Positions 1 through 63,231 of a DNA stretch of 64,000 nucleotides are shown piece by piece. This DNA comes from an uncultured Acidobacteriaceae bacterium. Lineage in GTDB: Bacteria > Acidobacteriota > Terriglobia > Terriglobales > Acidobacteriaceae. Location: NCBI GenBank assembly GCA_963715875.1, contig OY970281.1, positions 1,135,946 through 1,199,945 of the forward strand. The letters run 5' to 3'. Below the pieces are notes generated by a model. The model did not search any database and was not told the origin of the DNA. It worked only from the letters and a program-made list of their open reading frames with translations. The translations under genes were made by a program, and so were the position numbers. How positions within the stretch are numbered: the stretch's first letter is position 1; each line of letters starts with the position of its first letter.

Positions 1-3000
1 CGCCGGTAGTTGGGACAACGCCGTTTCCGCCCCCCCAGCTCCGACTTGGATCACCATATTCCGCGATTGGTTCCCGTGCTGCATCCGAAACTCGCCATCC
101 TCGATCAACCAATGGTCGGGACCAGGAGCATTGCTCAATGCATGATTCGTGCACTGTGCCACCACTCCGCCCACCGGACTGCAAAACTGCAACGCCTGCG
201 TGTTCCCCGACGTCTCCACCGTCCACATCGACTGCGCATCGTTGTAATTCTCTGTGTTGATCGCGGTGCCATTCGCCAGCGTGTACGCGCATCCCGTCGC
301 GCAAAGTGTCACGCTCGCCCCATACGCATGCGCTTTGGTAAACGTAGCGTAGATTCCAATCTGGTTCGGCCCACTTTGTGCGGCAACAATTTCCTGATTC
401 GCCCCAGTGTCGACCGTGTACGAGTTCCCCGGTGCCACATACCCGTTCGTCAGGGGAATCACAACTGGAATCCCTCCCGAAACCATCGCACTACTCACCG
501 CCGCCAACGTAGTCGTATTCGCCGAGAGTGTCGTAATCCCCGTGATCACAGGCTGCGTGTTGAGATCGCCACTCGCAGTACTCGCCGCCAGACCACTTAC
601 GCAGGTTGGCCCCGAACCGTAGCACGAACTTGCCGTCAACACGGCCCCGCCCGCGCCTCCACTCAATATCGTCCAACTCGTGTTGTATCCCGTCGGCGCA
701 AAACTGCCCCCGCTCACATACAGCCCTACCGTAAAACTCGCCGGATAAGACGTCGCGCAATTACTTCCCGCAACCAGCGTGAACGTGGCTATGCTGCCCG
801 TCATCGACGCCGTCACGCATGAAGTTCCGCCCCCGCTTCCCGCATCCGCTTGCAGCCCTTGCGCCCCCAGCGCGTAGTACATGTTCTGCCCAGTGCAATC
901 TGGATTCACCAACCCGATGTCGCTGGAACTCGCAAGATCATCCTGCATCCCGTGTGCGCACACGATGTTTCCATCCGGCAAGCTCGCGTCCTGCGTCGAA
1001 CGCAGCACGAGAAAACTGCTCGATGTTGCCGAGTTCGTCTGTGGAATCGTCAACCCACTCGCGCTCGAATACAGTCCCGGAGGAATGTCCAGCGCGATAC
1101 CCACCCCCGTCGCCGTCCGGCACGCTTCGATATCGTTAATCGCCGACTGCAACCCGCTGCTGCTTGGCGCTCCCGTCCAATAAGGAGCGTGAAACGTGCA
1201 ACTCGGCGCAGGCCCACTGATCCATGTACCCGGCAACGAAAGCTCGTAACTGAACAGCGTGTCTCCCTCATGGCTGTTTACCCAGGTCTGAGGCAGCGTT
1301 ACCTGCACCGCGGTCGGAGCCGCAACTGTCTCCCCGATCGTGAACTCTCCCGGCCCTGTGCTTCCGCCATACGCCGCATACCCTTCGTACACGTGCGCTC
1401 CAATCTCCCACCCAGTCCCGTACGCGTTCTGGTTCACTCCGTTAATGTCAACCGCATACGCCGCTCCCAGATTCTGTCCCGCATCCACCACTGGAGAATT
1501 CTTCGTCGGACGAAAATCCAGCCCGCCTGCCGAAGAGAATCCGCTCGTCGCCGCCAGCTTGTAGTAATAATTTCCATCCGTCCCCGTCTCCTGCGCCCCG
1601 CCCAGCAGCCAGTTCACCAGCCCCGTATTTGTCAGGATCGTCGCCCCGCTCGCTTTGAAATCCTGAATCAGATTCGTGATCTCCGTGCCTCCCACCGGAT
1701 CGCTGTTCGTCAATTCGTTCACGTGCCAGAAAATTCCCCACGGAACTCCCCACACCGCCTCTTTCCACACCAGAGCCTGGATCTTCTCATTCAACGCCGT
1801 CGCTGGAATTCCCATCCACGTCGGGTTCACTCCAAAACTCGTAACGTTCTGCGCGTTGAATCCATCGGCGTACGTGTCCTTCACTCCCAAATCTTCTTTC
1901 AGCGCCCCCCGCGCCCCCGCATACGGCACGCCCGCCGTGATCCCCTGCATCGCCGTCGTTTCATATCCTCCCGGATACACATACACCGGCGTCGCCGGCA
2001 AGCCACTCAGGTTCTTCGTCATCCACTGCCGCGACAGCGTGATCTCGTCCGTCGTCAGCCGCGTTACATCCAATTGCATGGCATATACCGCGCTCTTCAC
2101 GTCCACTCCGCTCACATCCGCCAGGTCCTGTGCCAGCAGTGCCGCTTCGGTATATGCCGAACATCCCGTTCCGTAAGGCCCTTGGCATGTCTGGATTTCT
2201 GTCGCCGTAAACTTGCCCGTTGCCACCAGCGCCAGTCGCAGTCCTTGGATCGTCCCCTGCGCCTGACCCTGCGCCAGGTTGTAACTCACGCTGTCGCCCG
2301 TTGCGCCCGCCACCGTAATCGTCAAAGTCTTGTTGCCGATGCTCAACGCCGCCGCCGTCCCGCTCCCCTTGTATTGAATGTCCAGCGCGTCAAGATTTGT
2401 GTAATACGTGTGCGACATCGAATGCGCAACCACGTCCCGACCCGCATTCACCCATCCCTGAAACTCTCCCACCAGTGTCTGCGCCAGCGGATATCCCACC
2501 GTGATCGCCGCCCCCACTGGAACCCCCGCCGCATCCGCCACCGGCAACACCGTCCCCGCATAATACGTATCCGCGCCAGCCGTCATTCCCGCATCGTCCA
2601 CCGTCAGCGTGACCATTGCCGGATACCTCTGATACACCTGCACCGCCGGCGCCGTATCTGCCGCAATGTTCCCCGCACCCGCAGTCGGCCCTGTCCCGCT
2701 CGTCCACTCCACGTCCGTCGATCCCGCCACCGCCAGGCTCGATGCATAAAAGTGACAGTAGGAATAAGTTACGGCCCCTGTGTTGTCCACCAGCGCCCCA
2801 TCCCGATTCGCATAGCCTTTGTCATTCACCATCGCGATCGCCGTCGCCGCCCCATCAAACCTGAAGCCGTCGTAATTGAGGTGCGCCTCCGAGTTGAAAA
2901 TCTTGATGTCCCCCGGCCCCGGCGCGCTCTCATTCACATAAAATCCCAGCGGCTGCGTCCCTTGTGGAATCATCGAATCCGCTTCCATATTCGCGAACAC

Positions 3001-3663
3001 CAGATGATCACTCGCTCCCTGCACATACACGCCGTACTCATCGAACCAGTTCACCAGAAAATGCTGGAACGTCAGCCACGATTTCCCATTGACATTGATC
3101 ACCGGCACGTTGCTCAGCGCCATCGGCACGATCGCCGCGTTGTAATAACTTGCCGGACTCCCCACCGAATAAACGTACACATACCCGCTCGCCAGGAAAA
3201 AGTCCCACTGCGCCGTCAGGTTCGGCGACGCAGCGGCGACCTTTTGGCCCCACACCGATCCAAATAAACAAAAACTGATCGTCGTATAACTCGCCGGCAG
3301 CGGCGCCTTCCACGCATTCCCCGTCACCTGCACCCACGCCGTCGCCGGTACCGCGTAATATCCCGTCAGATTCGGCGCCGCCCCACTCCCATACGCGTCA
3401 AACGTAATCGGATTTCCCACACTCCCTGAAGAATTCGGAACCAGGCTCTCATTCCAAACATCCCCCCTCTTGAACAGAATCGAATCCCCCGCCAGAAACG
3501 TCTGCCCATTCACCTGCGCAACCGTCTGCCACGCCGCCGCCGCCGAACTCCCGCTATTAGCATCGTTCCCCGTACTCGAACTCACGTAGTAAGTAGTAGC
3601 CGAAGCCACTCCACTCCACACCATGAACACGAAGAGGATGATCTTCCGCCCGGCCTCGTACAT
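1..3663 (-). CDS. Secreted beta-helix protein with a NodB-like (polysaccharide deacetylase) segment and a tailspike-like distal part. The 5' end is complete and the 3' end lies beyond the window start.
   Basis: The minus-strand frame (codon first bases at positions divisible by 3) is open from ATG 3663 to position 1. Because it has no in-window stop it is absent from the ORF track, and no other minus-strand track ORF uses this frame in 1-3663. My translation starts MYEAGRKIILFVFMVWSGVASATTYYVSSSTGNDANSGSSAAAAWQTV (signal/anchor followed by a beta-helix-type N-terminus). It contains VTLTVDDAG (about 2590-2615) and VVAHSMSHTY (about 2405-2435), which resemble NodB motifs 1 and 2. Further on, GLQSAINDIEAC...LDIPPGLY resembles the start of a pectate-lyase-3/tailspike domain. 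The Arg-rich + strand ORFs 10..822 and 850..3267 are its antisense shadows. Confidence 0.6.
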   Translation of the reverse strand, partial: MYEAGRKIILFVFMVWSGVASATTYYVSSSTGNDANSGSSAAAAWQTVAQVNGQTFLAGDSILFKRGDVWNESLVPNSSGSVGNPITFDAYGSGAAPNLTGYYAVPATAWVQVTGNAWKAPLPASYTTISFCLFGSVWGQKVAAASPNLTAQWDFFLASGYVYVYSVGSPASYYNAAIVPMALSNVPVINVNGKSWLTFQHFLVNWFDEYGVYVQGASDHLVFANMEADSMIPQGTQPLGFYVNESAPGPGDIKIFNSEAHLNYDGFRFDGAATAIAMVNDKGYANRDGALVDNTGAVTYSYCHFYASSLAVAGSTDVEWTSGTGPTAGAGNIAADTAPAVQVYQRYPAMVTLTVDDAGMTAGADTYYAGTVLPVADAAGVPVGAAITVGYPLAQTLVGEFQGWVNAGRDVVAHSMSHTYYTNLDALDIQYKGSGTAAALSIGNKTLTITVAGATGDSVSYNLAQGQAQGTIQGLRLALVATGKFTATEIQTCQGPYGTGCSAYTEAALLAQDLADVSGVDVKSAVYAMQLDVTRLTTDEITLSRQWMTKNLSGLPATPVYVYPGGYETTAMQGITAGVPYAGARGALKEDLGVKDTYADGFNAQNVTSFGVNPTWMGIPATALNEKIQALVWKEAVWGVPWGIFWHVNELTNSDPVGGTEITNLIQDFKASGATILTNTGLVNWLLGGAQETGTDGNYYYKLAATSGFSSAGGLDFRPTKNSPVVDAGQNLGAAYAVDINGVNQNAYGTGWEIGAHVYEGYAAYGGSTGPGEFTIGETVAAPTAVQVTLPQTWVNSHEGDTLFSYELSLPGTWISGPAPSCTFHAPYWTGAPSSSGLQSAINDIEACRTATGVGIALDIPPGLYSSASGLTIPQTNSATSSSFLVLRSTQDASLPDGNIVCAHGMQDDLASSSDIGLVNPDCTGQNMYYALGAQGLQADAGSGGGTSCVTASMTGSIATFTLVAGSNCATSYPASFTVGLYVSGGSFAPTGYNTSWTILSGGAGGAVLTASSCYGSGPTCVSGLAASTASGDLNTQPVITGITTLSANTTTLAAVSSAMVSGGIPVVIPLTNGYVAPGNSYTVDTGANQEIVAAQSGPNQIGIYATFTKAHAYGASVTLCATGCAYTLANGTAINTENYNDAQSMWTVETSGNTQALQFCSPVGGVVAQCTNHALSNAPGPDHWLIEDGEFRMQHGNQSRNMVIQVGAGGAETALSQLPA

Positions 3664-3974: not shown

Positions 3975-6900
3975 TTAATGAATTTCCCAAGCCATAATCG
4001 CAGCCTGCGTAGGATTATCCGCCGGAATCGTAATCCCACTATTCAAAGCTCCCCCCAAAGTCACGCTCTCCGGAGTCCCGCTAGTTCCCCCCACAAAGCT
4101 GAACCCGGCCGAGGTCCCGCCATAAATCTGCGCGCACGAACTCATACAACTGCTGGTAATCGCCAGATAATATTTCCCCGGCTGCAGTGTCGCGCCCGCG
4201 GTCCAATTCAATGTCTTCCATCCCGTACTCCCCGCAAACGCCGTTCCCGCCGTAGTTCCAATGTGCGCCACCACGCTCCCCGCGCTGTTCAACACTCCAA
4301 CGTCATAGGTATTACTCGTGTTGTCCGCAGTCGAAACGTAATAGGTGACCTGCGTCGTGCTCAGCGGAAACGTCAGCACCGCTCCCCACAACTCCGCCTT
4401 GTTCGCCGTACTCGAGAAGCTGATCGCCGTCCCCGTAGTGTTCGTCGTGAACCACGGAATCGCGTACCCCGCGCTGCTGCTCACATTCGACCCCGGCATA
4501 TCCAGAAACATCTGCACCGTCGTGCTCCCTGCGCTCGCCTGCAGCACTCGTCCTAATATCTGTGCTCCCGTCGGTCGCGTCGCCCCGGCGTCATGGCACA
4601 AAGGATAAAAACTCCCGTTCGCCGTCCCCGATGGAACGACGTAATCCCCCACCACCGTCGCGCTCCCATCGAAGCTGCAATAAGCCGATCCCGCCCGCGC
4701 CAGCGTTGCCACCCCGGACGTCCCCGCATTCGCAATCACCACTCCGATCGCTCCACTGCTCAGCGCGCTCCCCGGCTTCGCCGCGCAGCCCGCCGTCGTC
4801 AGCACCGCCAACCCGTTCACCACAGTGCCGTTCGTCGTGTCATTGCAAAGTTCATAACTCTCGCTGGCATACTTTCCCAACTCGAATCCACTCCCGCTCG
4901 CCGCATTTCCCGACACATACACGGTCCCCGGACGGAATCCGCTCCCGCTTCCCGCGCCGTTGAACGATCCCACCGTGTACGCCTGGTCCGTCCACGGCTT
5001 CAAATTTCCCGTCGCGTCCACCACCCACTTCAGTCCGTTGTTGATCCACAATCCCAACCCCGGCGCCGCGCCGGAACTCGAACTCTCGCTGCGCAACACC
5101 GCATAATTGTCCCCGGCGTCGTATCCCAGCGAAGTCCGCTGCCACGTGGAGCTGTTCGTATAAATCGAATACACATGCAGGTTCTGCGCCGTCGCCCCGT
5201 ACTGCCCCACATCGCTCCCATCTTCCTGGAACAAATTCGAGAAGTAGGAACTCGTTCCCATCGTCGCCACTTGCTGCGGAGCCCCCGCATTCGCCGAGAT
5301 ATAAAAATTCCCGTCGTTCGAGATTCCCAGCGACGACGTCCCCGCTCCCGCCGCCACCATCGCCGCCCCCGCCACCGGAGAGTTCACCATCCACGGCCCT
5401 GCCACCATCAGTTGCCCGTTCACCGTCACGTTTCCGCTGAACGTTCCCGCTGCCGCCGCAATCCCGTTGCTCCCCGCGTAGTTCAATGTCGAACCGTTGT
5501 CCGTCAGCCCGCTGTCGCCGCTCACTGCCGTTCCATTCGCCGCATACATCGCCAGTTGCGTCGCCGTGCCCCCGTTCACCGTTCCCGCACCGCCACCTCC
5601 GCAACCTGCGCACGTCCCCGTCACCGTCAAGTTGCCATTCACCGTCACCGGCACGTTGAACGTCTTCGCCGCCGCCGTTACCCGCTCCACAAAATTCGCT
5701 CCCGTCGGAATCGCCCCTATATACGAAGAGATCGCCGTCCCCGCTCGCTCCGTCAACCCTCCAGCCTGGTCCACTCCCAGCGCCATATCCCCGGCGTCGT
5801 TCCCCGGACGCTCACCCGCCGTCGCCACCGTCTTCGCAAAATTTGAATCCTGCAAAGTCACCAGATCATTCGGAACATTCCCAATCGCCTTCCCTAAATT
5901 CAGCCGCCCCTTGCTGTTCGTCACTGGACCGTTATTCGCATTGTCCTGCTCCTGCAGAACCGTCGCGATCGTTCCCGCCCCGCCGTTGTTCGCGCTCGCC
6001 AGGCACGTAATCCATATCGGACTTCTTTGTTGGCTCACGCCCGCCGGCTGGCACTGCTCCGCCACGATCGAAACTCCCATCGTCCCTTGACTTGCCACCG
6101 CCGACACGCTCGTCCCAATCTCATCCGCAAACACCGTCGTTCCATTGATCGCCAGGCTCACCGGCCAGAACCAGAACGCTGGAGTGTACTGCTGCCCCGC
6201 CACCGTATACGTCGTCGCTGCCGCCTGCGTGTCCGTAAACGAGCACATCCCGTTCGTTCCGCACGCCCCTGAAACATTGGTCGCGATCGCAAATGCGCCC
6301 GTACTAAACGGAGCCACCGCCGCCGTCCCCGTCGTCTCCAGAATGTCCCACGTCAGCGTTCCCACACTCTGCCCCGTCACCGATTGCAACTCCACCGAAG
6401 GCCACGCCAGCGGGATGTTCACGCTCCCGCTCGCCGGATCGGCCGATCCGATAAACAACACCGGCCCATATCCCAGCGTCGAACTCCTCGGCACCACAAA
6501 ATACGCTCGCTCCGCCGCCGCTAATCCTCCCGTCGCAAACACCGGAGAGTATCCGCCCAACGGAAACGTCCCCAGAATCTTCGTCCCCACTCCGCCCTGA
6601 ACCACCAGCCCAGCCTGCGCGCTCCCCGCTCCGTACAGCGGATTGCTCGTCGTCCCCGTCGACTCCTGATAAACGTTTTCAAACGTCGCCGGCTGCAGCC
6701 CGCCAAAATATCGCACCCCGTACGCCGGAAATCCCTGGCACACCGAATCCGTCATCACCAGTCCGTTCCCAGCCCCGGTTGCGCAATTCACGTTGGTCAA
6801 TTCGGCATCGTGGATGTACGTGATCCCGTTGTTTCCCTGATCGTTGCGCTCGTACACGAACGCCCCCATCGGAAAGTTCGCGTCGCTGCGGATCGATATG

Positions 6901-8954
6901 TCGCTTCGGTTCGCCGCCCCTTCAATCACCAGCGCCTGATCGTTATCGTTGACAATGCCAAAACTGAATACGTTGCTCGCCGTCGCTCCGTAATAAATAT
7001 TGATGTCCTGCATCACCACGTGATCGGAATTGTCTTCAATCGCTGCATTCAGTAGCCCGCAGAATCCGAATGTCGTCCCCGCGGCGAATGTCGTATTTCC
7101 AAACGACACCTCAAAGTGTGTCGCGTTCAATCCCGCCGCCAGCACCACCCCCGCCCAGTGCTGCGTCGCTCCCGTCGCGTAATACTCGCAGTCCACCGTG
7201 TCGCCCGCCACAAACGGATGCGCGCTCGCCGTCGTCACCGTATACGTCCCCGCCGTCGCGCTCACACTCGCAACCTGTACCCCATCCACGTTCACTCCCG
7301 AAATCATGCTCAGGTTGTAGAGCTTGTGATAATTCACCGCCGGCGCGCCCTGCGTCGTCCCCACATAAATGCAGCGGTCTCGCGTGAAGCAGTTCAGTTC
7401 TGCGCCCTGCGCCTCCAGCACTCCGCCTCGCCCGCGCAAATACACCGCCGAGTAAACGTTGTACATCGTGTCCGCCGCCAGCTTCACATAAGGAGCCGTC
7501 GTTGTATTCGCCGTCGTCCCCGAATCCGCAATCCACGCGTCGTTCCACGCCTCCTGCATCCCGCTCGAAGCCGATCCAACCGTGTATCCATTCGGATGGT
7601 TATTCGCCGTTGTCACCGTCAGTTGGCAACTCCCGCTAGTCGCCCCCGGCGTACAACTTCCTCCCGTCACCGGCGCCGCTTCCGGAGTTCCAGTCCCCGA
7701 GATGTAGACCGCATAAACGTAGTAATGAATGTTGATCGGATAATGCCCCGCCAGCGTCCCCGCCGCATCAATTCCCAGTGGGCACGGATTCGCCGTCGTG
7801 CACGTCAGCGTGATCGTCAGCCCCGTCCCCGCCGTTGCGAGGTTCCCGAGACTCCCGCCGTTATCCGTATACGCCCAGTTCCAGCTCGGCATCACATAAC
7901 GGATATTCGCCAGATTATTCGCCGAGAACTGTGTTCCCCCCGGCTGCGCGATATTTTGATTCGACGCCGGATTCATCGATAATCCTCCGGCCCCGCCCGC
8001 CGCGGTCGTCGGCGCATACTGGCCAGCCGCCGCTGAATACGCCAGCACCTGGCCATCCGACGGCGCTGTCGTCCCCACCGGAACGCTCTGAATCTCCGTT
8101 GCATTCGCGCTCGATCCGCATGCTCCCCAAGTCCCATTTCCAAGCAGGCAGTTCAACCCCGAAGCCACTCCCGTCCCCAACTCGCTCCGAGGCACCAAGC
8201 CGCTCACCAGGTCCGCCTTCCCGCTCCCCGCCAGATCGACATATTGTTTTGGAGCCGCTTGCAACGGCGCTGTCGGATTTCCGCTCAGCGTCACCGGACC
8301 AGTCATAGTCCCCCCCGCAGTCGGCAAAAAAGTTCCGGCCCCGACATTGGAGATCGAGGTATCGACGTACCCCTTATTCGCCACATCCCCCGTACCCACC
8401 GGCGCCGGTACACTCGGAGGCGCCACAAACGTTTTCGTCCCCGTCACCGTCTCCGCTCCCGCCAAATGGATCACCGCGCTATCGTCCGCTTTCCCCGCCA
8501 GCGCCGTATTCACGTACTCCATCGACACCGGTTGCGCCGCTGTCCCCGTTCCCGGCGTCGCCCGCACCTGCGCCAGCGTCGCCGGAGAGCTCGTCGGCAC
8601 CACCCAGTATTCGGTCCTCACCTCTCCCGGCCCCAGCTGGTACACCACCACGTAATAGATTCCCGCTGGCGTCGCTGCCGCATTCGGAACCAGTTGCACG
8701 CTCAGCGCTCCATTCGCTCCCAGCGTCGCATTCACCGTGCCCGGCGCGATCGCCGCTCCACTCGCCGTCACAAATGCCGGCCACGTAATCACCAGAGTCC
8801 CTTGGGCCGCGCTACCATCCGCCTCGTAGACGGTATCTTCCACCGTTGTCAGTGCAGGCCCACTCTGCGCCCAGGCTCCCACACTCGATGCCATCACCAC
8901 CGTCACCAGCGCCCAATAAAAAAGCCGCCCCATCGGGCGGCACGCCTGCAACAT
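3975..8954 (-). CDS. Giant secreted tail-fibre/tailspike-like beta-helix protein (1659 aa)
   Basis: Track ORF. The signal peptide is MGRLFYWALVTVVMASSVGAWAQ (alternative start 8933). The segment GYVDTSISNVGAGTFLPTAGGTMTGPVTLSGNPTAPLQAAPKQYVD is the motif I associate with phage tail-fibre proteins. The central GMQEAWNDAW...YVKLAADTMYNV...NLSMISGVNVDG region resembles pectate-lyase-3/tailspike beta-helices. The whole protein is G/T/A/S-rich. Confidence 0.75.
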   Translation of the reverse strand: MLQACRPMGRLFYWALVTVVMASSVGAWAQSGPALTTVEDTVYEADGSAAQGTLVITWPAFVTASGAAIAPGTVNATLGANGALSVQLVPNAAATPAGIYYVVVYQLGPGEVRTEYWVVPTSSPATLAQVRATPGTGTAAQPVSMEYVNTALAGKADDSAVIHLAGAETVTGTKTFVAPPSVPAPVGTGDVANKGYVDTSISNVGAGTFLPTAGGTMTGPVTLSGNPTAPLQAAPKQYVDLAGSGKADLVSGLVPRSELGTGVASGLNCLLGNGTWGACGSSANATEIQSVPVGTTAPSDGQVLAYSAAAGQYAPTTAAGGAGGLSMNPASNQNIAQPGGTQFSANNLANIRYVMPSWNWAYTDNGGSLGNLATAGTGLTITLTCTTANPCPLGIDAAGTLAGHYPINIHYYVYAVYISGTGTPEAAPVTGGSCTPGATSGSCQLTVTTANNHPNGYTVGSASSGMQEAWNDAWIADSGTTANTTTAPYVKLAADTMYNVYSAVYLRGRGGVLEAQGAELNCFTRDRCIYVGTTQGAPAVNYHKLYNLSMISGVNVDGVQVASVSATAGTYTVTTASAHPFVAGDTVDCEYYATGATQHWAGVVLAAGLNATHFEVSFGNTTFAAGTTFGFCGLLNAAIEDNSDHVVMQDINIYYGATASNVFSFGIVNDNDQALVIEGAANRSDISIRSDANFPMGAFVYERNDQGNNGITYIHDAELTNVNCATGAGNGLVMTDSVCQGFPAYGVRYFGGLQPATFENVYQESTGTTSNPLYGAGSAQAGLVVQGGVGTKILGTFPLGGYSPVFATGGLAAAERAYFVVPRSSTLGYGPVLFIGSADPASGSVNIPLAWPSVELQSVTGQSVGTLTWDILETTGTAAVAPFSTGAFAIATNVSGACGTNGMCSFTDTQAAATTYTVAGQQYTPAFWFWPVSLAINGTTVFADEIGTSVSAVASQGTMGVSIVAEQCQPAGVSQQRSPIWITCLASANNGGAGTIATVLQEQDNANNGPVTNSKGRLNLGKAIGNVPNDLVTLQDSNFAKTVATAGERPGNDAGDMALGVDQAGGLTERAGTAISSYIGAIPTGANFVERVTAAAKTFNVPVTVNGNLTVTGTCAGCGGGGAGTVNGGTATQLAMYAANGTAVSGDSGLTDNGSTLNYAGSNGIAAAAGTFSGNVTVNGQLMVAGPWMVNSPVAGAAMVAAGAGTSSLGISNDGNFYISANAGAPQQVATMGTSSYFSNLFQEDGSDVGQYGATAQNLHVYSIYTNSSTWQRTSLGYDAGDNYAVLRSESSSSGAAPGLGLWINNGLKWVVDATGNLKPWTDQAYTVGSFNGAGSGSGFRPGTVYVSGNAASGSGFELGKYASESYELCNDTTNGTVVNGLAVLTTAGCAAKPGSALSSGAIGVVIANAGTSGVATLARAGSAYCSFDGSATVVGDYVVPSGTANGSFYPLCHDAGATRPTGAQILGRVLQASAGSTTVQMFLDMPGSNVSSSAGYAIPWFTTNTTGTAISFSSTANKAELWGAVLTFPLSTTQVTYYVSTADNTSNTYDVGVLNSAGSVVAHIGTTAGTAFAGSTGWKTLNWTAGATLQPGKYYLAITSSCMSSCAQIYGGTSAGFSFVGGTSGTPESVTLGGALNSGITIPADNPTQAAIMAWEIH

Positions 8955-8973
8955 AATTCCTCCTCAAACCTTG

Positions 8974-9067
8974 GTTGTCATCCTGAACAAGCGCTTTTTG
9001 CGCAGTGAAGGATCTGGGCGTGCCGCGCGAAGCTGCCTGCCCTGAGCAAGCGCAGCGCGCCGATGGG
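8974..9067 (+). repeat. Family A repeat, copy 1 (degenerate, followed by GCCTGCCCTGAG module)
   Basis: The family consensus is (T)TCTGTCATCCTGAGCG - central hairpin - GCAGTCGAAGGATCCCTA(CCC). This copy reads GTTGTCATCCTGAACAAGCGCTTTTTGCGCAGTGAAGGATCT. Confidence 0.6.
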
Positions 9068-9158
9068 TCGCGTTTTTTGCGACGCAACAATCGCGCGTTT
9101 GGCTCGCTTCGCTATAACTGCACCACTCAGCGATCTCCGCGACAAAAGCTCTAAAGCC

Positions 9159-9614
9159 TCACCCGACCAGCGGCTGTCCCCGCCCCTTAAGAAACGACTC
9201 CACACTCTCCACATAAACCTCCGCAAAATCCGCCACCGGACGCCGCTTCTCAATCAAATCCATCGCATCCTCCACCGTCCACCCCATCACTCCCAGCAGC
9301 GCCAGCGTCATCATCGGCGCCCGGTGCACTCCCGCCGCGCAATGGATATACAATTTCGTCCCATCTTCATCCAGCGCCGCCAGTCCGAACTCCACCCCGC
9401 GCTCAAACACTTCCGCCGGCTTCGACTCGAAATCGTCGTCCACCGGATTCCAGCACACTTCAATCCCCTGCGCCTTCCCCAGCGTCGTGTCATCGAACTC
9501 AATCTGCATGTCGATGATGTGCGTCACTCCCGCCCGCGCCACTTCCGCCATGTTCTCCGCATTCCAGATTCCGCCCCCGACCGCGATTCGGTCGGTCACC
9601 CACGTCATATCCAT
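9159..9614 (-). CDS. Dual-specificity (Cys-based) protein phosphatase
   Basis: The HCAAGVHRAP active-site loop fits HCxxGxxR. I chose the start at MDMTWVTDRIAVGG (ATG 9614). The longer track ORF to 9926 adds an Arg-rich extension that runs through repeat DNA. Confidence 0.75.
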   Translation of the reverse strand: MDMTWVTDRIAVGGGIWNAENMAEVARAGVTHIIDMQIEFDDTTLGKAQGIEVCWNPVDDDFESKPAEVFERGVEFGLAALDEDGTKLYIHCAAGVHRAPMMTLALLGVMGWTVEDAMDLIEKRRPVADFAEVYVESVESFLKGRGQPLVG

Positions 9615-9790
9615 TCCCACTCTGCGTCCTGTGCTGCGGATTTTTCCATCCGCGAGATTTCTCCCGGAAAACTCTCCCCGGACCCTTCCCGGAATCGCTC
9701 CCGCCATCTCTCTCCGGCGCGATCCCACTCGCGGCGAAACCGACAGCGCCATCGCCCTGTCCATCTCTCCCGCACCAAAACTCCCGCGCT

Positions 9791-10234
9791 TCATTTTACG
9801 GTATCCCCTCCACACGCACCCGTCTGTTCTTCTCCGCGCCCCCCGCGGATCTTCTCCGCGTTCTCCGCGCTGAAAGGCGTCAATCTGTCGTCCCGCAAGC
9901 GACCAGGTTCGTTGTTCTTCCCACACTCCGCAACCACCGGTTCCAGTGGCAGCCCCAGCCGCATCAGCAGAGTTCCCGCCAGCGAATTCTCCGGGAACGC
10001 CTCCCCCGTAGTCGCCTCCGTCGCCGGATACAACCCGACGATTTCAAACAAATACTTCATCGCGGCCAGCCGCGCACTATTTCCATCGTCAATCAGCGTA
10101 CCCACCATTCCGTTCGCCTTTTCGCCCACCAACTTGCTGATCCCTTTCCGCACCGCAACAAAATCCACCGCCAAATCCTCTTTCAACACGCCGTCGTTTT
10201 CAGTCACCCGCCCCCCCTGCTCCAATCTTGTCAT
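9791..10234 (-). CDS. Hypothetical protein
   Basis: Track ORF with ordinary composition and no recognisable domain. The C-terminal ...FSAENAEKIRGG is encoded by a CTCCGCG-word repeat, so the tail may be a repeat-derived extension. Confidence 0.45.
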   Translation of the reverse strand: MTRLEQGGRVTENDGVLKEDLAVDFVAVRKGISKLVGEKANGMVGTLIDDGNSARLAAMKYLFEIVGLYPATEATTGEAFPENSLAGTLLMRLGLPLEPVVAECGKNNEPGRLRDDRLTPFSAENAEKIRGGRGEEQTGACGGDTVK

Positions 10235-10295
10235 TCCGAACCGCCGGGACGGCGGGTGAGGAACCTGCTGTTAGCCGCCACTCCCCCGCCGCCCG

Positions 10296-10330
10296 CCAAA
10301 AAACACGAAAGGCGCGCCCGAAGCGCGCCT
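10296..10330 (-). terminator. Intrinsic terminator ending the Zn-ribbon/sigma-like operon
   Basis: An 8-bp GC stem AGGCGCGC/GCGCGCCT (10310-10317 and 10323-10330) encloses a 5-nt loop. On the minus strand it is followed by TTCGTGTTTTTTG. Confidence 0.6.
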
Positions 10331-10441
10331 TCCCAGTACTATTGCTTTTTCTTTTACTCTATATATCCAGAATAGCATACGGCAATGGGTAGCTGCATCA
10401 CGATTTGCTGAACTTTATTCCCCACCTCTTCAGCAACTTAA

Positions 10442-11065
10442 CTACTTTTCCACAGATTTTGCCTCTTGACAGCTTTTCGCTCCTTCCGTTTTTTCCGCCT
10501 CCGTCAGCAATCCCACTCGCAAAAACTCCTCGCTCAGCAGGTCCAGCACCTCATACAGCCTCCGCTGAACTGTGGCCCGCCCGCAATTCAGCAAGCGCGC
10601 CGCCTCCCACTGATCGTGTTCCTGCAGGATCACCCTAGCGATCAACTCCTGATCCCACTTCCGCAGCCGCCCCAGGCACATCTCCACATCCCGCACCAAA
10701 ATCACTCGATCCTCGAACGTCACCGGACGGTACGCCGTCACCTTCGCCCGAAAAAATTCCCGCCCCATGATCGACGGCAATCTTCCCGTCTCCAGCGAAA
10801 ACCTCATATACCGCCGCAACAGTCCCACCGTGCGGTTCCGGTACATCCAAACATCCGGATTCCGATCCGAGGCATCGCCTTCCGGCCATCCCTCATCGCA
10901 GTCCGGCCCTGCCGTAAATCTGTACGGTGGCAGTTCCACTCCCATCGCACCCGCTCCGCACTGCGGACCCTGATTGCCAACTGGCATTCCGTTTGGGACG
11001 ATTCCGCCTTTCGCCGGATCCCATCCCTCCGCCTCAGCCGCGATCCATTCCACAAAGTTGCTCAT
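10442..11065 (-). CDS. Sigma-70 region-4-like / HTH transcription factor (no recognisable region 2)
   Basis: The C-terminal WDQELIARVILQEHDQWEAARLLNCGRATVQRRLYEVLDLL resembles a sigma region 4 HTH. The start ATG overlaps the upstream stop (ATGA at 11062-11065), which indicates translational coupling. Confidence 0.6.
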   Translation of the reverse strand: MSNFVEWIAAEAEGWDPAKGGIVPNGMPVGNQGPQCGAGAMGVELPPYRFTAGPDCDEGWPEGDASDRNPDVWMYRNRTVGLLRRYMRFSLETGRLPSIMGREFFRAKVTAYRPVTFEDRVILVRDVEMCLGRLRKWDQELIARVILQEHDQWEAARLLNCGRATVQRRLYEVLDLLSEEFLRVGLLTEAEKTEGAKSCQEAKSVEK

Positions 11066-11337
11066 TCCTCGCCTCCCGTTTCGTCTACGTCCAGATCGTC
11101 ATGGCTCTCGTAGTCTTCGTACCAGTCGCTGTCGGAACCACACCCCAACTCCGGAAACAGCTGTTCCTCGTCGGGCTCATGCGAAACCGCGGGCAATTGC
11201 GCGATCGCGCTCTCGCATGCCGCGCAATACACCTGCCCTGTGCCCACTTGCCGCAGCCACAACCCGCCACAGCGTTCGCAATACTTCAACTCAAATTGCA
11301 TTCTTGTTGCCGAACTCCCGTCTTCTTCTTTCATCAT
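11062..11337 (-). CDS. Small zinc-ribbon protein with an acidic tail
   Basis: The sequence has CERCGG...CAACES (CxxC-N17-CxxC) and a D/E-rich C-terminus. The preferred start is MMKEEDG, just after AGGAGG. The track start at 11382 would abut the U-tract of the upstream terminator. Confidence 0.55.
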   Translation of the reverse strand: MMKEEDGSSATRMQFELKYCERCGGLWLRQVGTGQVYCAACESAIAQLPAVSHEPDEEQLFPELGCGSDSDWYEDYESHDDLDVDETGGEE

Positions 11338-11384
11338 TCCTCCTAAAGTCTCGCGCTTTCGAATAGCCGGGCCCAGCGGCATAA

Positions 11385-11439
11385 CAAAAAAAGCCCTGCG
11401 TCGGTCAGCCGCCCTCTCAGCGGAAACCGGACGCAGGGC
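11385..11439 (-). terminator. Strong intrinsic terminator after the YezD-like gene
   Basis: A 10-bp stem GCCCTGCGTC (11393-11402) / GACGCAGGGC (11430-11439) is followed on the minus strand by TTTTTTTG. Confidence 0.65.
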
Positions 11440-11529
11440 TCGTTTCTCTTACGATGGCCTGCTTGGCTATTTACTTGTCGTACCCACTCCTCGAACTTCG
11501 CCTCCTCGCTTCAGCAGGCGATTTCTGCG

Positions 11530-11769
11530 CTACAGTTCGCTCCTACCCTCTTGCTCCAGCATCGTCCCCGAACCGTGTTGGTGGAAATATCCTTCGTCGT
11601 ATCCCGATTTCAGCACCCGCCCGTTCTGCACCACCACGCTGATCCGCCCGCTGAATTTCACAGACCTCAGCAGGTGCTCCATCGCTGCCGACAGCACTTC
11701 TGCGTCCCGCATCTTCCGCCGGAATTCCCCGAAGTGCTTTTCTTCGTTGGGGTTATATCCGTTGTTCAT
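11530..11769 (-). CDS. Small protein, DUF2292/YezD-like
   Basis: KFSGRISVVVQNGRVLKSGYDEGYF resembles the YezD motif (GS-hTh-hQDGKVhQ). A GAGGAGAGG RBS sits about 6 nt upstream of the ATG. Confidence 0.5.
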   Translation of the reverse strand: MNNGYNPNEEKHFGEFRRKMRDAEVLSAAMEHLLRSVKFSGRISVVVQNGRVLKSGYDEGYFHQHGSGTMLEQEGRSEL

Positions 11770-11922
11770 GGCCGCCTCTCCTCGATCGATAGACTGAGTT
11801 ATAGTCTGTTGGCGATCCTATAGCTGTCGAATATTGCGGGTCAAGGTCGTTATACCAATGGGGCTGTGGAAAACTCTTTTCGATTAGCGCATTGCTATAG
11901 CCCACATGCTATACTCCGAGTT
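11770..11922. promoter_or_regulatory. Divergent promoter/operator region of the CI/LexA-like switch
   Basis: ATAG-containing words are present: GATAGACT 11788, TATAGTCT 11800 (together forming AGACT-N7-AGTCT inverted arms) and CTATAGCT 11818. There is a direct repeat TGCTATAG 11893 / TGCTATAC 11907. TGCTATACT fits an extended -10 that ends 7 nt before ATG 11923. Confidence 0.4.
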
Positions 11923-12639
11923 ATGAAATTCCGAGTTCTGCAGGAAAATCTCCGCAACACCATCTGGGAGCGCATCGAAGAAGGCGATCTCACCGGCCTC
12001 CGTCTCGCCCAGCAAACCGGCTTCAAACAGGCCCATATCTCCAACTTCCTCAATCGCAAGCGCGGCCTCAGCCTCGAGGGCATGGACCGTGTCCTCGCTG
12101 TCCAGCATCTCTCCGTTCTCGATCTCCTCGATCCTTCCGAGGTCAACAAGCGCGCTTCAATTCTGCCTCCCAGCAACGACGAGTTTCAAAACGTTCTTCT
12201 GGCCGACTCCACCGTCGCCGCTACCAACCCCATCATCACCAGCATGAACGTCAAAGAAATCGTCAAGTTCAAAAAGAGTTTTCTGAAAAAGCTCAAGGCG
12301 GAATCCGAAGGCCCTCGCGAAGATTGGGAGCGTTTCGTCGTCATCAAAGTCGATGCTCGCGAGGGGATGAGCATGTACCCGCGCCTGCTCCCCGGCGCCA
12401 CGCTCCTCATCGACCGCCATTACAACTCACTCAAGCCCTACCGCAAGGGCGAGTTCAGCATGTACGCTGTCCGTAAAAACGACACCTGCACCGTCAAATA
12501 CGTCGAACTAGCCGGCAATCATCTCATCCTCCGCCCCCACAACCAGGCCTATCCCATCGAAGTCATGACCATTGAAGACGGCAAGCACCCCTCCGACTAC
12601 TTAGTAGGCCGCATCTGCCACATAAGCATCGAAACCTAA
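11923..12639 (+). CDS. CI/LexA-like repressor (XRE-type HTH + S24 peptidase domain)
   Basis: The N-terminal LRLAQQTGFKQAHISNFLNRKRGLSLEGMDRV is an HTH. The C-terminal EGMSMYPRLLPGATLLID carries the Ser motif G-x-S-M, and CTVKYVEL...LRPHN carries the Lys motif of S24 peptidases. ATG 11923 is preferred over the GTG at 11866. Confidence 0.8.
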   Translation: MKFRVLQENLRNTIWERIEEGDLTGLRLAQQTGFKQAHISNFLNRKRGLSLEGMDRVLAVQHLSVLDLLDPSEVNKRASILPPSNDEFQNVLLADSTVAATNPIITSMNVKEIVKFKKSFLKKLKAESEGPREDWERFVVIKVDAREGMSMYPRLLPGATLLIDRHYNSLKPYRKGEFSMYAVRKNDTCTVKYVELAGNHLILRPHNQAYPIEVMTIEDGKHPSDYLVGRICHISIET

Positions 12640-12676
12640 CAGGGAAGACCGCAACGTGAGCGTGCCGGTCGGAATA

Positions 12677-12765
12677 AGCCGCGAAGCGGCGCAAGAATGC
12701 AGCCCACCGCGCAAGCGGTGGGTTGCGATAAGGAAATTAGTCAGAGCCCCAGCGGGGCGACAGAC
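12677..12765 (+). repeat. Family B repeat (triple-hairpin ~90-nt element), copy 1
   Basis: The consensus is AGCCGCGAAGCGGCGCAAGAATGCAGCCCACCGCGCAAGCGGTGGGT..(about 20 nt)..AGAGCCCCAGCGGGGCGAAAGA. Confidence 0.8.
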
Positions 12766-12788
12766 AGCCCACCCGAACCGATGCGCAG

Positions 12789-12877
12789 TTCTGTCATCCT
12801 GAACAAAACCAAGACGATCACAGGGAGTCCCGGTGCAGTCGAAGAGCCTGCCCCGAGGTTGTCGAGGGGATCCCTAC
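12789..12877 (+). repeat. Family A repeat, copy 2 (long form with nested module)
   Basis: TTCTGTCATCCTGAAC...GGGAGTCCCGGTGCAGTCGAAG[AGCCTGCCCCGAGGTTGTCGAGG]GGATCCCTAC. Confidence 0.7.
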
Positions 12878-12926
12878 TCGCACCCAACCGCCGAAGTCCA
12901 GCGAAGCCGTCCCTGGAAGAAGCACC

Positions 12927-14468
12927 CTACCCATTCCCCAAACTATCGAACATCTTCCACAACTTATCTCCCGTAGCCCGATAAATCACATACCCGCTGC
13001 CCGCATCGCTCGTCTCCCGGAACAGCAACTCCCCACGCCCATCTCCATCCACATCCACCGCATCAATCAGCTCCAGTTGCGGAGTCACGTCCAGATGAAA
13101 TTTATCCGTCACTCCGCTATACAGCTTGCGCAGGTTGCCGTAGATATCGGTTTTCGCCACCAGCATCACGCTGTAGCTTTCCTCCGGCTCCCCCGCAGCC
13201 CCCGCCAGATGCGCCTCCGCGCTCAAGATCATCACCGGCTGGTTGTTCCCCCAAAGGTCATAGCCGCGAAACTGGACCTTCTCAAACGACGCCTGTACCG
13301 GCTTCACCGCAGCCTTGTGTCCCTTCGCCTTCACGCTCGGTGCATTCGCCGGGATCCGATTCTTTGCCAATGCACTCGCATACGCCCGCACTTCATCTCC
13401 CGCCAGTGCCAGCATCTGCTTCTGCCGATCTTCATCTTCCCCTGTCTTCCAGAAAAAATTGTACGTTCGTGGCTCCGGCCCACCCTCATCGGATATCGCC
13501 GCCACCACCCGCACCTCCGTCTCCCCACCGGCTTTCTTCTCACCTGTCGCGGCCTTCGCCGTCTCCTCTTCCACCGCCGGAGCCGCTTCCGTTGGTTTTC
13601 CTCGCCTCAGCGTCGGCCGGTAATAATTCTGATCCTGACCCTGAGGAGCCGTGTCCGACCCAGCTTTTGCCTGCGCCGCCTGATTCCCCCCCGAGTCGGA
13701 AGGTTTTCCTCCAGCTGTCCCGGACGTACCGCCGCTCGCCGTCCCGCCCGCCGCCGAACCGCTCCCGGCCGCTGGCGTAGACGCGCCCGGCTTCTCCGCC
13801 GCTCCAGTCCCCGCCCCTGAATCGCCCGCTGCCGCCGGACTCCCCGCCCCAGCCGCACTTCCCGCACTCGGAGCCGCCCCTGCTTTCGCCCCATTCCCCT
13901 TAGTCAGCCGCGGCGGTTCATCTCCCCCGCTGTTGTCCAGCCCCACCGGCACCGTCTCTGCTTTCAGACTTGTCTTGGCCGGCCCGGTTCCATTCGGGTA
14001 GTAGGCCCCCGCTCCCACCCAGGGATGCACGCTCGCCGCCTTGTAATGCCGTGCCTGGTTGATCGTGAACAGCCCCTGCGATACCCCCGCCTGCTCCGCC
14101 TCATACACCGTGCCCGGTTCCACCGCCATCGGCACCGGCTCCGCTTTGTACGCGCTGGCATCGTAAAACTTGCCCTCAACCAGTATTGCGATCGGGATCA
14201 GCATCGCCTTTCCCTCGCTGCTGAATTGCACCACCCCCACCGCCCGCGGCCCTTTCACCTTCGGTTTCTTTTTTACCTCCGGCGGCTTTTCCTCCGGAGT
14301 GTCTCCGGGCCGCTTCAGTTGCGGCATTTGCGCCGCTCCCCGCGCCACCCCCATGGCAAAAAACGCCAGAATCACCATGACGGCTGGCCCTGATCTGCGG
14401 TATAAACGCTTTCTGGACAAAACGAGTCCCGTCCACCCTGACTTCCATCGAATCGAGGCGATCTTCAT
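12927..14468 (-). CDS. Secreted protein with a long G/A/S/P low-complexity linker and a C-terminal FG-GAP/VCBS-like DVDGDGRGELLF motif
   Basis: Track ORF. The signal-like segment is RKRLYRRSGPAVMVILAFFAMGVARGAAQ. The start is uncertain: ATG 14468 or ATG 14378. Confidence 0.6.
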   Translation of the reverse strand: MKIASIRWKSGWTGLVLSRKRLYRRSGPAVMVILAFFAMGVARGAAQMPQLKRPGDTPEEKPPEVKKKPKVKGPRAVGVVQFSSEGKAMLIPIAILVEGKFYDASAYKAEPVPMAVEPGTVYEAEQAGVSQGLFTINQARHYKAASVHPWVGAGAYYPNGTGPAKTSLKAETVPVGLDNSGGDEPPRLTKGNGAKAGAAPSAGSAAGAGSPAAAGDSGAGTGAAEKPGASTPAAGSGSAAGGTASGGTSGTAGGKPSDSGGNQAAQAKAGSDTAPQGQDQNYYRPTLRRGKPTEAAPAVEEETAKAATGEKKAGGETEVRVVAAISDEGGPEPRTYNFFWKTGEDEDRQKQMLALAGDEVRAYASALAKNRIPANAPSVKAKGHKAAVKPVQASFEKVQFRGYDLWGNNQPVMILSAEAHLAGAAGEPEESYSVMLVAKTDIYGNLRKLYSGVTDKFHLDVTPQLELIDAVDVDGDGRGELLFRETSDAGSGYVIYRATGDKLWKMFDSLGNG

Positions 14469-58472: not shown

Positions 58473-58800
58473 AAGAATCTCCTTTTCCTTTGCCAGAACC
58501 GCGGGCGATACGTTGGAGAGAGACCGGAAAACCCGGCGTGATCCTGCGTTAGGCCGTGGTTCGCATCTGCGATGGGGTTGCGTGGTTGTTGCTCACGTCG
58601 ATTTCGCGCTTCCGGCCTGCGGGGGAATAGATTGCGGGCGAGCGACGGGCGCAGTTCCAGCCCAATAAGATCACAACCACGGTGAACGCGCGGTGACGAC
58701 TGACAGCACGAAAGGTGATATATCGCACTTGGGGACCCTTAGAGCAAATGGGCCCCGCAAGTATTCCGCATGTATTACAGATCTGCAGCCGAAAAGCCCC

Positions 58801-63190: not shown

Positions 63191-63231
63191 TGCATGTATT
63201 CGTCCTGCGGTCGAACAAACACCCAGCCCAC

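Follow-up and report, generated by a model that had tools for sequence, protein, structure and literature searches.

The window, a 64-kb (64,000-nucleotide) stretch of DNA from an uncultured Acidobacteriaceae bacterium, encodes a CI/LexA-fold regulator that is divergent from a DUF2292-like gene, which is followed by a terminator and then by the ATGA-coupled genes for a Zn-ribbon and a truncated sigma-like protein. Downstream of this switch lie orf147, a phosphatase gene and the genes for two giant fibre-like proteins, and then packaging-type genes beyond the window. The features are listed below by window coordinates, strand, description and basis.

11923..12639, + strand: CI/LexA-fold regulator, XRE-type HTH plus S24 domain, 238 aa (Pfam, AF2, Foldseek, LexA alignment)
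11770..11922, no strand: divergent control region, 153 bp, with five GYTATAS boxes and an invariant block (orthologous spacers)
11798, 11818, 11849, 11894 and 11908, no strand: GYTATAS boxes (motif matches in the spacer)
11864-11875, no strand: invariant block CTGTGGAAAACT (conserved in orthologous spacers)
11907..11915, + strand: putative extended -10 of the regulator, TGCTATACT (sequence; invariant in 9 congeners and 45 orthologous spacers)
11815..11844, - strand: putative sigma-70-type promoter of the DUF2292-like gene, TTGACC-N18-TAGGAT (hexamers in invariant blocks)
11530..11769, - strand: weakly DUF2292/YezD-like protein, 79 aa (in 76 of 80 loci)
11441..11478, - strand: conserved 38-nt non-coding block immediately preceding the terminator (consensus AACTAAATAGCTCAAGCAGGTCATCGTAAGAGAAACG)
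11385..11440, - strand: strong intrinsic terminator, long GC stem and U-run, between the DUF2292-like and Zn-ribbon genes
11062..11337, - strand: Zn-ribbon protein, CxxC-N14-CxxC (motif conservation)
10442..11065, - strand: truncated sigma-like protein, 207 aa (sigma region 4 at residues 127-181)
10297..10333, - strand: intrinsic terminator after the sigma-like gene (terminator-like hairpin in 54 of 72 genomes)
9791..10234, - strand: orf147, conserved protein, start uncertain (core AKYLFE..GLYPAT...EDSLA.TLL.RLGLP)
9791..9805, - strand: DNA motif GATACCGTAAAATGA, family consensus GATRCCGTARAATGA, conserved irrespective of reading frame
9159..9620, - strand: dual-specificity (Cys) phosphatase, 153 aa (DSPc E=1.3e-13; 74 of 80 loci)
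3975..8954, - strand: giant secreted protein 1, 1659 aa (signal peptide, tail-fibre-like repeats, beta-helix)
1..3663, - strand: giant secreted protein 2, about 2065 aa with the ATG at 3663 as start (signal peptide, right-handed beta-helix)

Conservation and contents of the cluster

This gene set is syntenic in 12 of 12 congeners and in about 80 Terriglobales species, and the seven front genes all occur in the same order across about 80 species-level genomes. Within the genus the array is single-copy, has the same flanks and is present in 21 of 24 congeners; it was found in none of 16 genomes of the sister family. Given that it is single-copy and syntenic, we regard it as an old, vertically kept, phage-derived cluster, and the conserved locus spans about 38 kb. 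The control module is conserved in soil acidobacteria throughout the order Terriglobales. A preliminary description of this DNA, all of whose features lie where it places them, had linked the module to the phosphatase and giant genes; this link was seen in all the genomes looked at, one of them with a rearranged locus. Virus-prediction pipelines tag the locus as 'viral' (IMG/VR contigs); if the cascade proposed below holds, it is instead a fixed chromosomal cluster, belonging to acidobacteria that are abundant in soil and peat, and it controls very large secreted proteins. In a PADLOC search, a weak 'control protein' HTH match apart, the switch proteins matched no defence family.

The same description had placed a Cys-phosphatase and two giant tail-fibre-like proteins after the sigma-like gene. 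These genes are indeed present, although the conserved orf147, whose orthologues have a Lys-rich N-terminus, intervenes before the phosphatase. Both giant proteins carry Sec-type signal peptides in addition to fibre or beta-helix motifs, and because of these signal peptides we do not consider them to be virion parts. The N-terminus of giant protein 1 is conserved and its remainder variable; giant protein 2 extends past the window edge. The motif GATACCGTAAAATGA is unique in the genome, and its consensus before the phosphatase gene, together with the 38-nt pre-terminator block, constitutes two new conserved DNA elements. As a candidate promoter or other regulatory site, GATRCCGTARAATGA may serve the phosphatase and giant genes.

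The locus had also been described as being without a phage, which holds inside the window; however, terminase-like, portal and head-tail adaptor genes follow the giants on the same strand, 2-14 kb beyond the window's left edge (terminase-large-like, phrog_2, 3e-18; portal, Pfam 5e-41; adaptor, phrog_442, 1e-8), and they keep a conserved order; packaging-type genes follow on the same strand in several lineages. The present genome has an IS481-family transposase interrupting the terminase-like gene and a frameshift in the portal gene, and the packaging genes are absent at this place in three congeners. Pfam and PHROGs scans of the neighbours recognised no capsid, tail tube, tape-measure or integrase gene, and likewise no tail sheath, baseplate or lysis cassette. 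The suggested analogy with PrtR/PrtN control of tailocins thus fails, since sheath, tube and baseplate genes were not recognised and the 'fibres' carry signal peptides. Because of those signal peptides, and because three congeners have no packaging genes at this place, the cluster may be a mosaic and not one regulon. A PDB sequence search gave nothing usable for giant protein 1 or for the terminase-like, DUF2292-like and Zn-ribbon proteins.

Regulator and divergent control region

The regulator contains a Peptidase_S24 domain (PF00717, E=3.4e-8, above the Pfam cut-off). Its Cro/C1 HTH match in Pfam is weak, and the HTH resembles HipB-type XRE domains with E about 1e-3. The AF2 model (pLDDT 87.6) found lambda CI and LexA as its best Foldseek matches (E 1e-8 to 1e-5), with a TM of 0.72-0.76 against the LexA C-domain. 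These results bear out the architecture proposed at the outset, an XRE HTH joined to an S24 autopeptidase domain. Its Ser (GMSM) and Lys (TVKY) motifs are intact in the window copy, as had been stated: Ser150 and Lys192 align with GDSM and TLKR of the genome's own LexA, and both residues are kept in all 35 members of the window copy's clade. Orthologues are 53-96% identical, and 62 of 72 are 238 aa long; a pattern scan found no viral relative.

Ser, Lys or both are nevertheless lost in 14 of the 71 orthologues that retain the locus, a count that becomes 15 of 72 rows once the rearranged L120 locus is included. These losses need about 7 changes on the tree, and the dyad-less orthologues retain both the locus and the AAT loop. 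At the position of LexA VAAG, this loop reads V-A-A-T-N-P in the window copy (VAAT at residues 98-101), so that V-A-A-T-x-P equals the LexA V-A-A-G-E-P apart from the Gly. The P1' position is Thr (AAT) in 58 of 71 orthologues and Gly (AAG) in one, and neither AG nor CG occurs between residues 70 and 145, leaving this stretch with no scissile Ala-Gly or Cys-Gly. The scissile Ala-Gly is the defining feature of self-cleaving S24 repressors (PMC7101444, PMC8565304). A canonical LexA with VAAG is encoded elsewhere in the same genome. From these sequences, canonical RecA-stimulated Ala-Gly self-cleavage appears unlikely as a general mechanism.

The 153-bp divergent spacer, previously noted as rich in ATAG words, was confirmed and holds five G-Y-TATA-S boxes; in most orthologues it is 148-152 bp long. 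GYTATAS matches the 64-kb window 18 times against 6.6 expected, with 6 matches (5 sites) packed into 117 bp of the control region at positions conserved among orthologous spacers. The boxes are most likely the repressor's binding sites, candidate operators identified solely from where they lie and how they recur. Of the five, two overlap the -10 elements of the two promoters; these two candidate operators are simply the -10 regions. The regulator's extended -10 ends 7 nt before its ATG, with no Shine-Dalgarno sequence, and its mRNA is probably leaderless. Both hexamers of the DUF2292-like gene's promoter fall within invariant blocks.

Several other words were considered. LexA-box types (GTTC-N7-GTTC, CTGT-N8-ACAG, GAAC-N4-GTTC and others) are absent from positions 8000-13000; the tested types are absent upstream of lexA too and may not be the host's own box. 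RCCGTARAAT and CGTAARA were rejected as general promoter words, both occurring at chance frequency, and CTGTGGAAAWCT was rejected as a regulon-wide operator, as four of its five genomic copies are in unrelated contexts. One of these other copies precedes a small peptide gene and then an S24/S26-type peptidase gene.

Leader, terminator and the Zn-ribbon/sigma-like pair

The first divergent gene had been called YezD-like, with its own strong terminator. The terminator is real (dG -37.9), but the likeness to YezD is weak: the window copy scores E=0.11 and 12.5 bits against PF10055, for which the Pfam cut-off is 22, and of 26 orthologues 19 reach E<=1 (best 0.0019), each time in the same segment and all below the cut-off. 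We therefore speak of a weak likeness to DUF2292/YezD, not of membership. The core of the 79-aa protein comprises a helix and a beta-hairpin, F..EFRRK...QNGRVLKSGYEEGYF, and the protein is a candidate Cro-like, anti-repressor or antiterminator component. The terminator is kept in 74 of 76 genomes, together with the leader block, and its stem has compensatory changes at 6 of 13 pairs. No Rfam family matches this leader/terminator element.

The Zn-ribbon gene and the 207-aa gene are translationally coupled, as claimed, by an ATGA stop/start overlap that can be read directly; the Cys spacing, given previously as CxxC-N17-CxxC, reads CxxC-N14-CxxC. The invariant pattern is K-x-C-E-x-C-G...R...Y-C-x-x-C, with a tail that is acidic in the window copy and basic in phage copies, and no similarity of the Zn-ribbon to sigma region 2 or to RsoA/Sig8 was detected. 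Sigma region 4 is, as first reported, the sole part of the 207-aa protein recognised with confidence. Taken alone, the window copy matches Sigma70_r4_2 below the cut-off (E 0.038), while 45 of 62 family members match it (best 1.2e-9), and hhalign against ECF sigmas of the same genome aligned residues 127-181 with 93% probability (E 2.5e-7). PDB matches fall on region 4 of RpoE, CnrH and FliA, the best being RpoE (E 0.0027). The match to NCBIfam sigma70-ECF is weak (E=0.002), and Sigma70_ECF is matched by 19 of 62 members. A likeness to the ECF region 2.4 helix is seen at residues 68-86 (DVWMYRNRTVGLLRRY; family consensus DPDLWLYRxRTxxLLRRY), this WLYR helix aligning under permissive settings only. 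Sigma70_r2 is matched by none of the 62 members, and regions 2.1-2.3 were not detected. The AF2 model is poor (pLDDT 60), and its Foldseek matches, which were not significant, were taken only as a hint.

The N-terminal 65 residues of the sigma-like protein are variable, and they are absent in phage copies. The pair, overlap retained, occurs in temperate-phage contigs with integrase, terminase and replication genes, where it is compact (67-72 aa plus 136-151 aa); adjacency with overlapping stop and start is kept in chromosomes and phages, and the pair is a module that the cluster shares with acidobacterial temperate phages. The family comprises about 900 clusters at 50% identity, every named member of which is 'hypothetical', and no relative of the sigma-like protein was found in a cultured-phage collection. 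No relationship was found between the chromosomal terminase-like gene and the terminase of the pair-carrying phage; the cluster is not just an integrated copy of that phage.

A possible repressor-gated cascade and its relatives

We give an even chance to the reading that this module stands at the head of an old phage-derived cluster, passed on vertically, and regulates it as a repressor-gated cascade that releases a split-sigma-like activator. The CI/LexA-fold repressor would bind the GYTATAS boxes over both -10 elements and so block the sigma-70-type promoter of the divergent operon as well as its own. When repression is lifted, the DUF2292-like gene would be transcribed, and the transcript would have to pass the leader block and the very strong terminator to reach the Zn-ribbon and sigma-like genes; the order of these elements is observed anatomy, from which we infer read-through or antitermination. 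The pair, which by its sequences looks like a two-part sigma factor of phage origin, would then switch on orf147 and the genes of the Cys-phosphatase and the giant proteins, along with such terminase, portal and adaptor genes as are intact, with GATRCCGTARAATGA as its candidate target. The preliminary description had likewise proposed a switch releasing a dedicated activator, and of that proposal the phage-style repressor, the divergent promoter and the terminator before a transcription-factor pair stand, but not the DNA-damage trigger. Several observations count against the cascade, the operator assignment by position and the possible mosaic nature of the cluster among them. No conserved -35-like partner of GATRCCGTARAATGA, which a region-4 domain would bind, was found. 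The Zn-ribbon has no region-2 similarity, and the model of the sigma-like protein is poor.

The missing Ala-Gly (VAAT in 58 of 71), the dyad lost in 14 of 71 and the lack of any tested LexA-box type in the region leave the damage trigger unsupported, and they speak against the alternative of an SOS switch, in which RecA* filaments would stimulate self-cleavage of the S24 repressor and free the pair, as in PrtR/PrtN or AlpR/AlpA. We consider this alternative unlikely. Its attraction lies in the confidently modelled LexA/CI fold, in a dyad intact in the window copy and its whole clade, in a loop that differs from LexA only by Gly, and in an AlpR/AlpA-like layout of repressor, small positive factor and terminator (PMC7969949); however, the linker contains neither Ala-Gly nor Cys-Gly, about 7 dyad changes have left locus and AAT loop in place, and the genome has its canonical VAAG LexA.

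A sigma/anti-sigma-type arrangement, with the sigma-like protein alone acting as a divergent ECF-type sigma or LuxR/GerE-type activator and the Zn-ribbon sequestering or chaperoning it, is distinctly improbable. The Zn-ribbon gene comes first, the reverse of the usual order; the protein is a plain CxxC...CxxC ribbon without the HxxxCxxC of ZAS domains; and the parts that core binding and promoter melting require, regions 2.1-2.3, were not detected. Zinc-binding domains are common among anti-sigmas, and the translational coupling, with the 1:1 stoichiometry typical of such pairs, would suit this arrangement, as would the weak sigma70-ECF match and the 19 of 62 members matching Sigma70_ECF. That phages keep so compact a pair together is nevertheless easier to reconcile with two parts of one factor than with an inhibitor. 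Very improbable is a decaying prophage remnant whose regulatory genes have no useful role. The damaged terminase-like and portal genes, the three congeners without packaging genes and the failure to find an integrase or recognisable capsid gene fit such decay; the well-conserved regulator, the shared order of seven front genes in about 80 genomes, the DNA-level conservation of promoter, boxes, terminator and leader, and the single copy with constant flanks within the genus do not.

A fuller version of the cascade is possible but on the unlikely side: an order-wide domesticated phage-derived element of Terriglobales, combining a CI-fold repressor largely without self-cleavage with an undescribed two-subunit sigma factor (Zn-ribbon plus region 2.4/region 4 subunits) shared with the temperate phages of these bacteria, its output being a phosphatase, fibre-like secreted proteins of giant size and a reduced packaging machine. 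If true, this would be a new kind of GTA-like or secreted-fibre system.

Among known systems, lambda CI at PRM-PR shares an HTH plus S24-fold repressor divergent from the lytic-side promoter, several short repeated boxes over both -10 elements and, at the Terriglobales locus probably, a leaderless repressor mRNA; the lambda cI mRNA from PRM is leaderless. Unlike lambda, the locus has a regulator without an Ala-Gly site, a DUF2292-like first divergent gene instead of a Cro HTH, and a fixed place in the chromosome as a cluster that has neither integrase nor att sites. AlpR/AlpA and PrtR/PrtN of P. aeruginosa are similar in that a chromosomal, phage-derived CI-like S24 repressor is set over a small positive factor, with an intrinsic terminator between promoter and output genes; but AlpR and PrtR are cleaved after DNA damage, whereas the Terriglobales regulator is missing the defining site, the DNA-binding antiterminator AlpA is unrelated to proteins of this locus, and the outputs are a phosphatase and giant secreted proteins in place of lysis genes or a tailocin (PMC7969949, PMC9371919). 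IrvR of Streptococcus mutans and non-canonical LexA-like repressors, also chromosomal HTH plus S24 proteins, have a non-SOS output and probably a prophage origin, and they show that not all such repressors depend on RecA; Ala-Gly and Ser-Lys are both present in IrvR and the Bacteroidetes proteins, whereas the Terriglobales family has no Ala-Gly and part of it no dyad (PMC7101444, PMC8565304). If the cascade reading holds, a CI/LexA-fold family has lost its cleavage site, and repeatedly also its dyad, while the regulated locus persists, and the loss series would be natural material for asking what such repressors sense instead.

Established split sigma factors, namely SigO-RsoA of B. subtilis, Sig7-Sig8 of Tn916, T4 gp55/gp33 and SPO1 gp33/gp34, are dedicated positive regulators of an element's main operon, often on phages or mobile elements (PMC8103513; bioRxiv 10.64898/2026.10.01.756105). 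The present pair resembles them in its two small, adjacent, predicted co-expressed genes, with one protein carrying region 4, and differs in that the partner is a Zn-ribbon in which no region-2 similarity is detectable, the larger protein has retained a region-2.4-like helix, and association with RNA polymerase is only predicted. It would add a new architecture to a short list and link this architecture to late control in phages, in a phylum that molecular genetics has hardly touched. Gene transfer agents and domesticated prophages are likewise vertical, single-copy clusters with terminase-like, portal and adaptor genes, no integrase and host-like regulation (PMC11841831). The Terriglobales cluster differs from gene transfer agents in having no recognisable capsid, tail tube or tape-measure genes, in packaging genes that are disrupted here and missing in some congeners, and in fibre-like proteins that carry Sec signal peptides.

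Anatomy and conservation of the switch

The anatomy of the switch was confirmed, with small corrections to the preliminary description. The region contains the following elements.

11923-12639, + strand: repressor gene (238 aa), with a Peptidase_S24 domain and a weak HTH
11770-11922: 153-bp spacer between the repressor and the 79-aa gene, with GYTATAS boxes and an invariant block, CTGTGGAAAWCT, from the spacer alignments
11530-11769, - strand: 79-aa gene, DUF2292-like below threshold
Between the 79-aa and Zn-ribbon genes, - strand: terminator, a long GC hairpin with a U-run
11062-11337, - strand: Zn-ribbon gene, CxxC-N14-CxxC
10442-11065, - strand: 207-aa sigma-like gene, its ATG overlapping the Zn-ribbon TGA
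10307-10333, - strand: second terminator, after the sigma-like gene
9791-10234, - strand: orf147, a conserved gene absent from the earlier gene list
3' of orf147, - strand: DSPc phosphatase (E 1.3e-13)
3' of the phosphatase, - strand: two giant proteins with Sec signal peptides, tail-fibre-like repeats and beta-helices

The window occupies positions 1135946-1199945 of a single-contig genome (5.36 Mb). The sigma-like gene occurs as a single copy and was found in 21 of 24 congeners and in none of 16 sister-family genomes. The order repressor, 79-aa gene, Zn-ribbon, sigma-like gene, orf147, phosphatase, giant 1 (and giant 2) was kept in 12/12 congeners, and the same order was recovered in practically all of another 80 Terriglobales genomes, where most gaps are contig ends. 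On one contig the repressor has been relocated to the strand of the phosphatase and giant genes, with all genes still linked. The earlier interpretation is supported in part: judged from sequence, its cascade logic and dedicated activator appear well founded, whereas its DNA-damage trigger and tailocin analogy do not. The system is a new version of known phage-type switches, with three undescribed components: the Zn-ribbon/truncated-sigma pair, a repressor family lacking the Ala-Gly site, and a conserved leader element.

The repressor and its divergent spacer

In Pfam searches the Peptidase_S24 domain of the repressor scored above the cut-off (E 3.4e-8) and Cro/C1-type HTH matches were weak; PHROGs classed the protein as a transcriptional or CI-like repressor. 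An AF2 model built from 39 orthologues was confident (pLDDT 87.6), its closest PDB structures being the lambda-186 hybrid repressor, lambda CI and LexA, with TM-scores of 0.72-0.76 against LexA C-terminal fragments. Adjoining the repressor stop codon, and immediately 3' of a 542-aa gene, is an Acido-Lenti-1 RNA motif (Rfam; 12677-12722, - strand; 52 bits versus a gathering score of 37, E 4e-10).

Ser150 and Lys192 of the repressor correspond in alignment to the catalytic residues of the genome's canonical LexA, whose gene lies at a distance of 94 kb and whose cleavage site is the normal VAAG. The matching loop of the repressor reads VAATNP; among 71 orthologues at the syntenic locus, 58 carry AAT here and one carries AAG. 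Fourteen of these 71 no longer have the full dyad, Ser, Lys or both being gone, most often through a Lys-to-Arg change; in a rearranged, more distant locus the dyad positions are Ala and Arg. A maximum-likelihood tree was built from 72 rows, 15 of which, the rearranged IMG/VR locus L120 included, have lost the dyad; on it the losses amount to about seven changes, at least two of which are forced by well-supported branches; the dyad is kept in 35/35 members of the clade containing the window's repressor. None of the LexA box types tested was present in the region. Together, the AAT loop, the repeated dyad loss and the lack of a tested LexA box argue against the SOS-type trigger proposed previously. 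Self-cleavage may still occur in this organism, but it is non-canonical at best and is dispensable for retention of the locus.

The 64-kb window contains 18 GYTATAS matches, versus 6.6 expected, and six of these (five sites) cluster in 11798-11914. Alignments of nine congeners and of 45 orthologous spacers revealed invariant blocks. Those on the - strand give a promoter for the 79-aa gene, TTGACY-N17/18-TASGAT, which was also found by a consensus scan. On the + strand, the repressor side has an extended -10 element, TGCTATACT, ending 7 nt 5' of the ATG; the start lacks a Shine-Dalgarno sequence, and the mRNA is probably leaderless. Because two GYTATAS boxes overlap the two -10 elements, a protein bound to them would be expected to repress both promoters. 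A second copy of CTGTGGAAATCT lies elsewhere in this genome (G000:C1:4855300-4856030, - strand), 5' of a small peptide gene and, after it, the gene of an S24/S26-type peptidase that lacks an HTH; these genes could form a peptide-maturation pair and are probably unrelated to the switch.

Proposed terminator gate and Zn-ribbon/truncated-sigma pair

The YezD likeness reported for the 79-aa gene stands, as a DUF2292 match only below threshold. At the gap that follows it, a hairpin and U-run were present in 74 of 76 genomes (-26 to -48 kcal/mol), with compensatory changes in 6 of 13 consensus pairs. Directly 5' of the terminator is a 38-nt block that is strongly conserved, apparently unstructured and without a match in Rfam. 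Given the strong, conserved terminator and the short stretch, about 47 nt, between its U-run and the Zn-ribbon start, the pair is probably expressed through read-through or antitermination; alternatively, the 38-nt block may be the promoter for a short terminated RNA.

In the Zn-ribbon protein, the paired CxxC motifs described earlier are present, separated by N14 rather than N17, a spacing invariant in 28 sequences. Clustering at 50% identity divides the family of the 207-aa protein into about 900 clusters, and every named member is annotated "hypothetical"; the conserved core of the protein spans residues 68-190. The sigma region 4 homology noted previously is solid at the family level, and no member matched Sigma70_r2. 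Under permissive extension, the ECF region 2.4 helix could be aligned to an invariant motif that reads DPDLWLYRxRTxxLLRRY in the family consensus and DVWMYRNRTVGLLRRY in the window copy. With region 4 and a region 2.4-like helix but no Sigma70_r2, the protein looks like a sigma factor lacking regions 2.1-2.3. A version of 136-151 aa occurs in temperate-phage contigs that also carry integrase, terminase, sliding-clamp and replication genes; in every case a Zn-ribbon of 67-72 aa comes before it, and the stop of the one gene overlaps the start of the next. The nearest precedent is the split sigma factors of phages and mobile elements, such as T4 gp55/gp33, SPO1 gp33/34, SigO-RsoA and Tn916 Sig7-Sig8 (PMC8103513; bioRxiv 10.64898/2026.10.01.756105). 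The pair differs from these in its Zn-ribbon partner, for which no region-2 likeness was found.

A second DNA element, GATRCCGTARAATGA, was located in 72 of 74 loci, where orf147 ends; it lies 4-238 nt upstream of the called start of the phosphatase, and in most genomes this distance is about 120-190 nt. It is conserved independently of reading frame, is unique in this genome, and showed no conserved -35. The ending D-A/T-V-K/E shared by many orf147 orthologues arises solely from the overlap of this DNA motif with the stop codon. A Lys-rich N-terminal stretch typical of most orthologues is missing from the window's orf147, whose true start is uncertain.

A phage-derived chromosomal cluster

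Beyond the window, in the adjoining stretch L030 of the same genome (G000), the following genes continue on the strand of the giant genes.

After giant 2: two unknown genes
Terminase-large-like gene (phrog_2, 3e-18), interrupted by an IS481-family transposase
Terminase_6C-like piece
L030:10740-12619: HipA-like/DUF3037 pair, PADLOC candidates PDC-M66A/B (candidate defence)
L030:9224-10355 (G000:C1:1125223-1126354): portal (Pfam 5e-41)
Head-tail adaptor, then further unknown genes

Given these phage-type packaging genes, the earlier designation of a switch "without a phage" is not right. The transposase (L030:13171-14478; G000:C1:1129170-1130477) separates the terminase-like ORF from its Terminase_6C-like continuation; the other genomes examined have no transposase here. 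The portal gene spans two frames here, which reflects a genuine frameshift or else an assembly error, and a single frame in two other genomes (G009, G023) and the IMG/VR contig L127. Between the terminase-like and portal genes, the HipA-like kinase/DUF3037 pair keeps its position in relatives. The order of the packaging genes is the same in two congeners and three IMG/VR contigs, it also holds for the terminase-like gene in seven distant loci, and three congeners lack the packaging part at that place. Neither a capsid nor a tail or integrase gene was recognised. L120 (IMGVR_UViG_3300049727_000195) and contigs L127-L129 are labelled viral by IMG/VR, yet are copies of the chromosomal cluster from related acidobacteria. 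The switch thus heads a phage-derived cluster that is chromosomally fixed, old and, in this genome, partly decaying.

GC skew on the + strand is very strong (about -0.25) across window positions 1-56000 regardless of gene direction, and near zero or slightly positive in 56000-64000; the flip near 56 kb may be a replication landmark.
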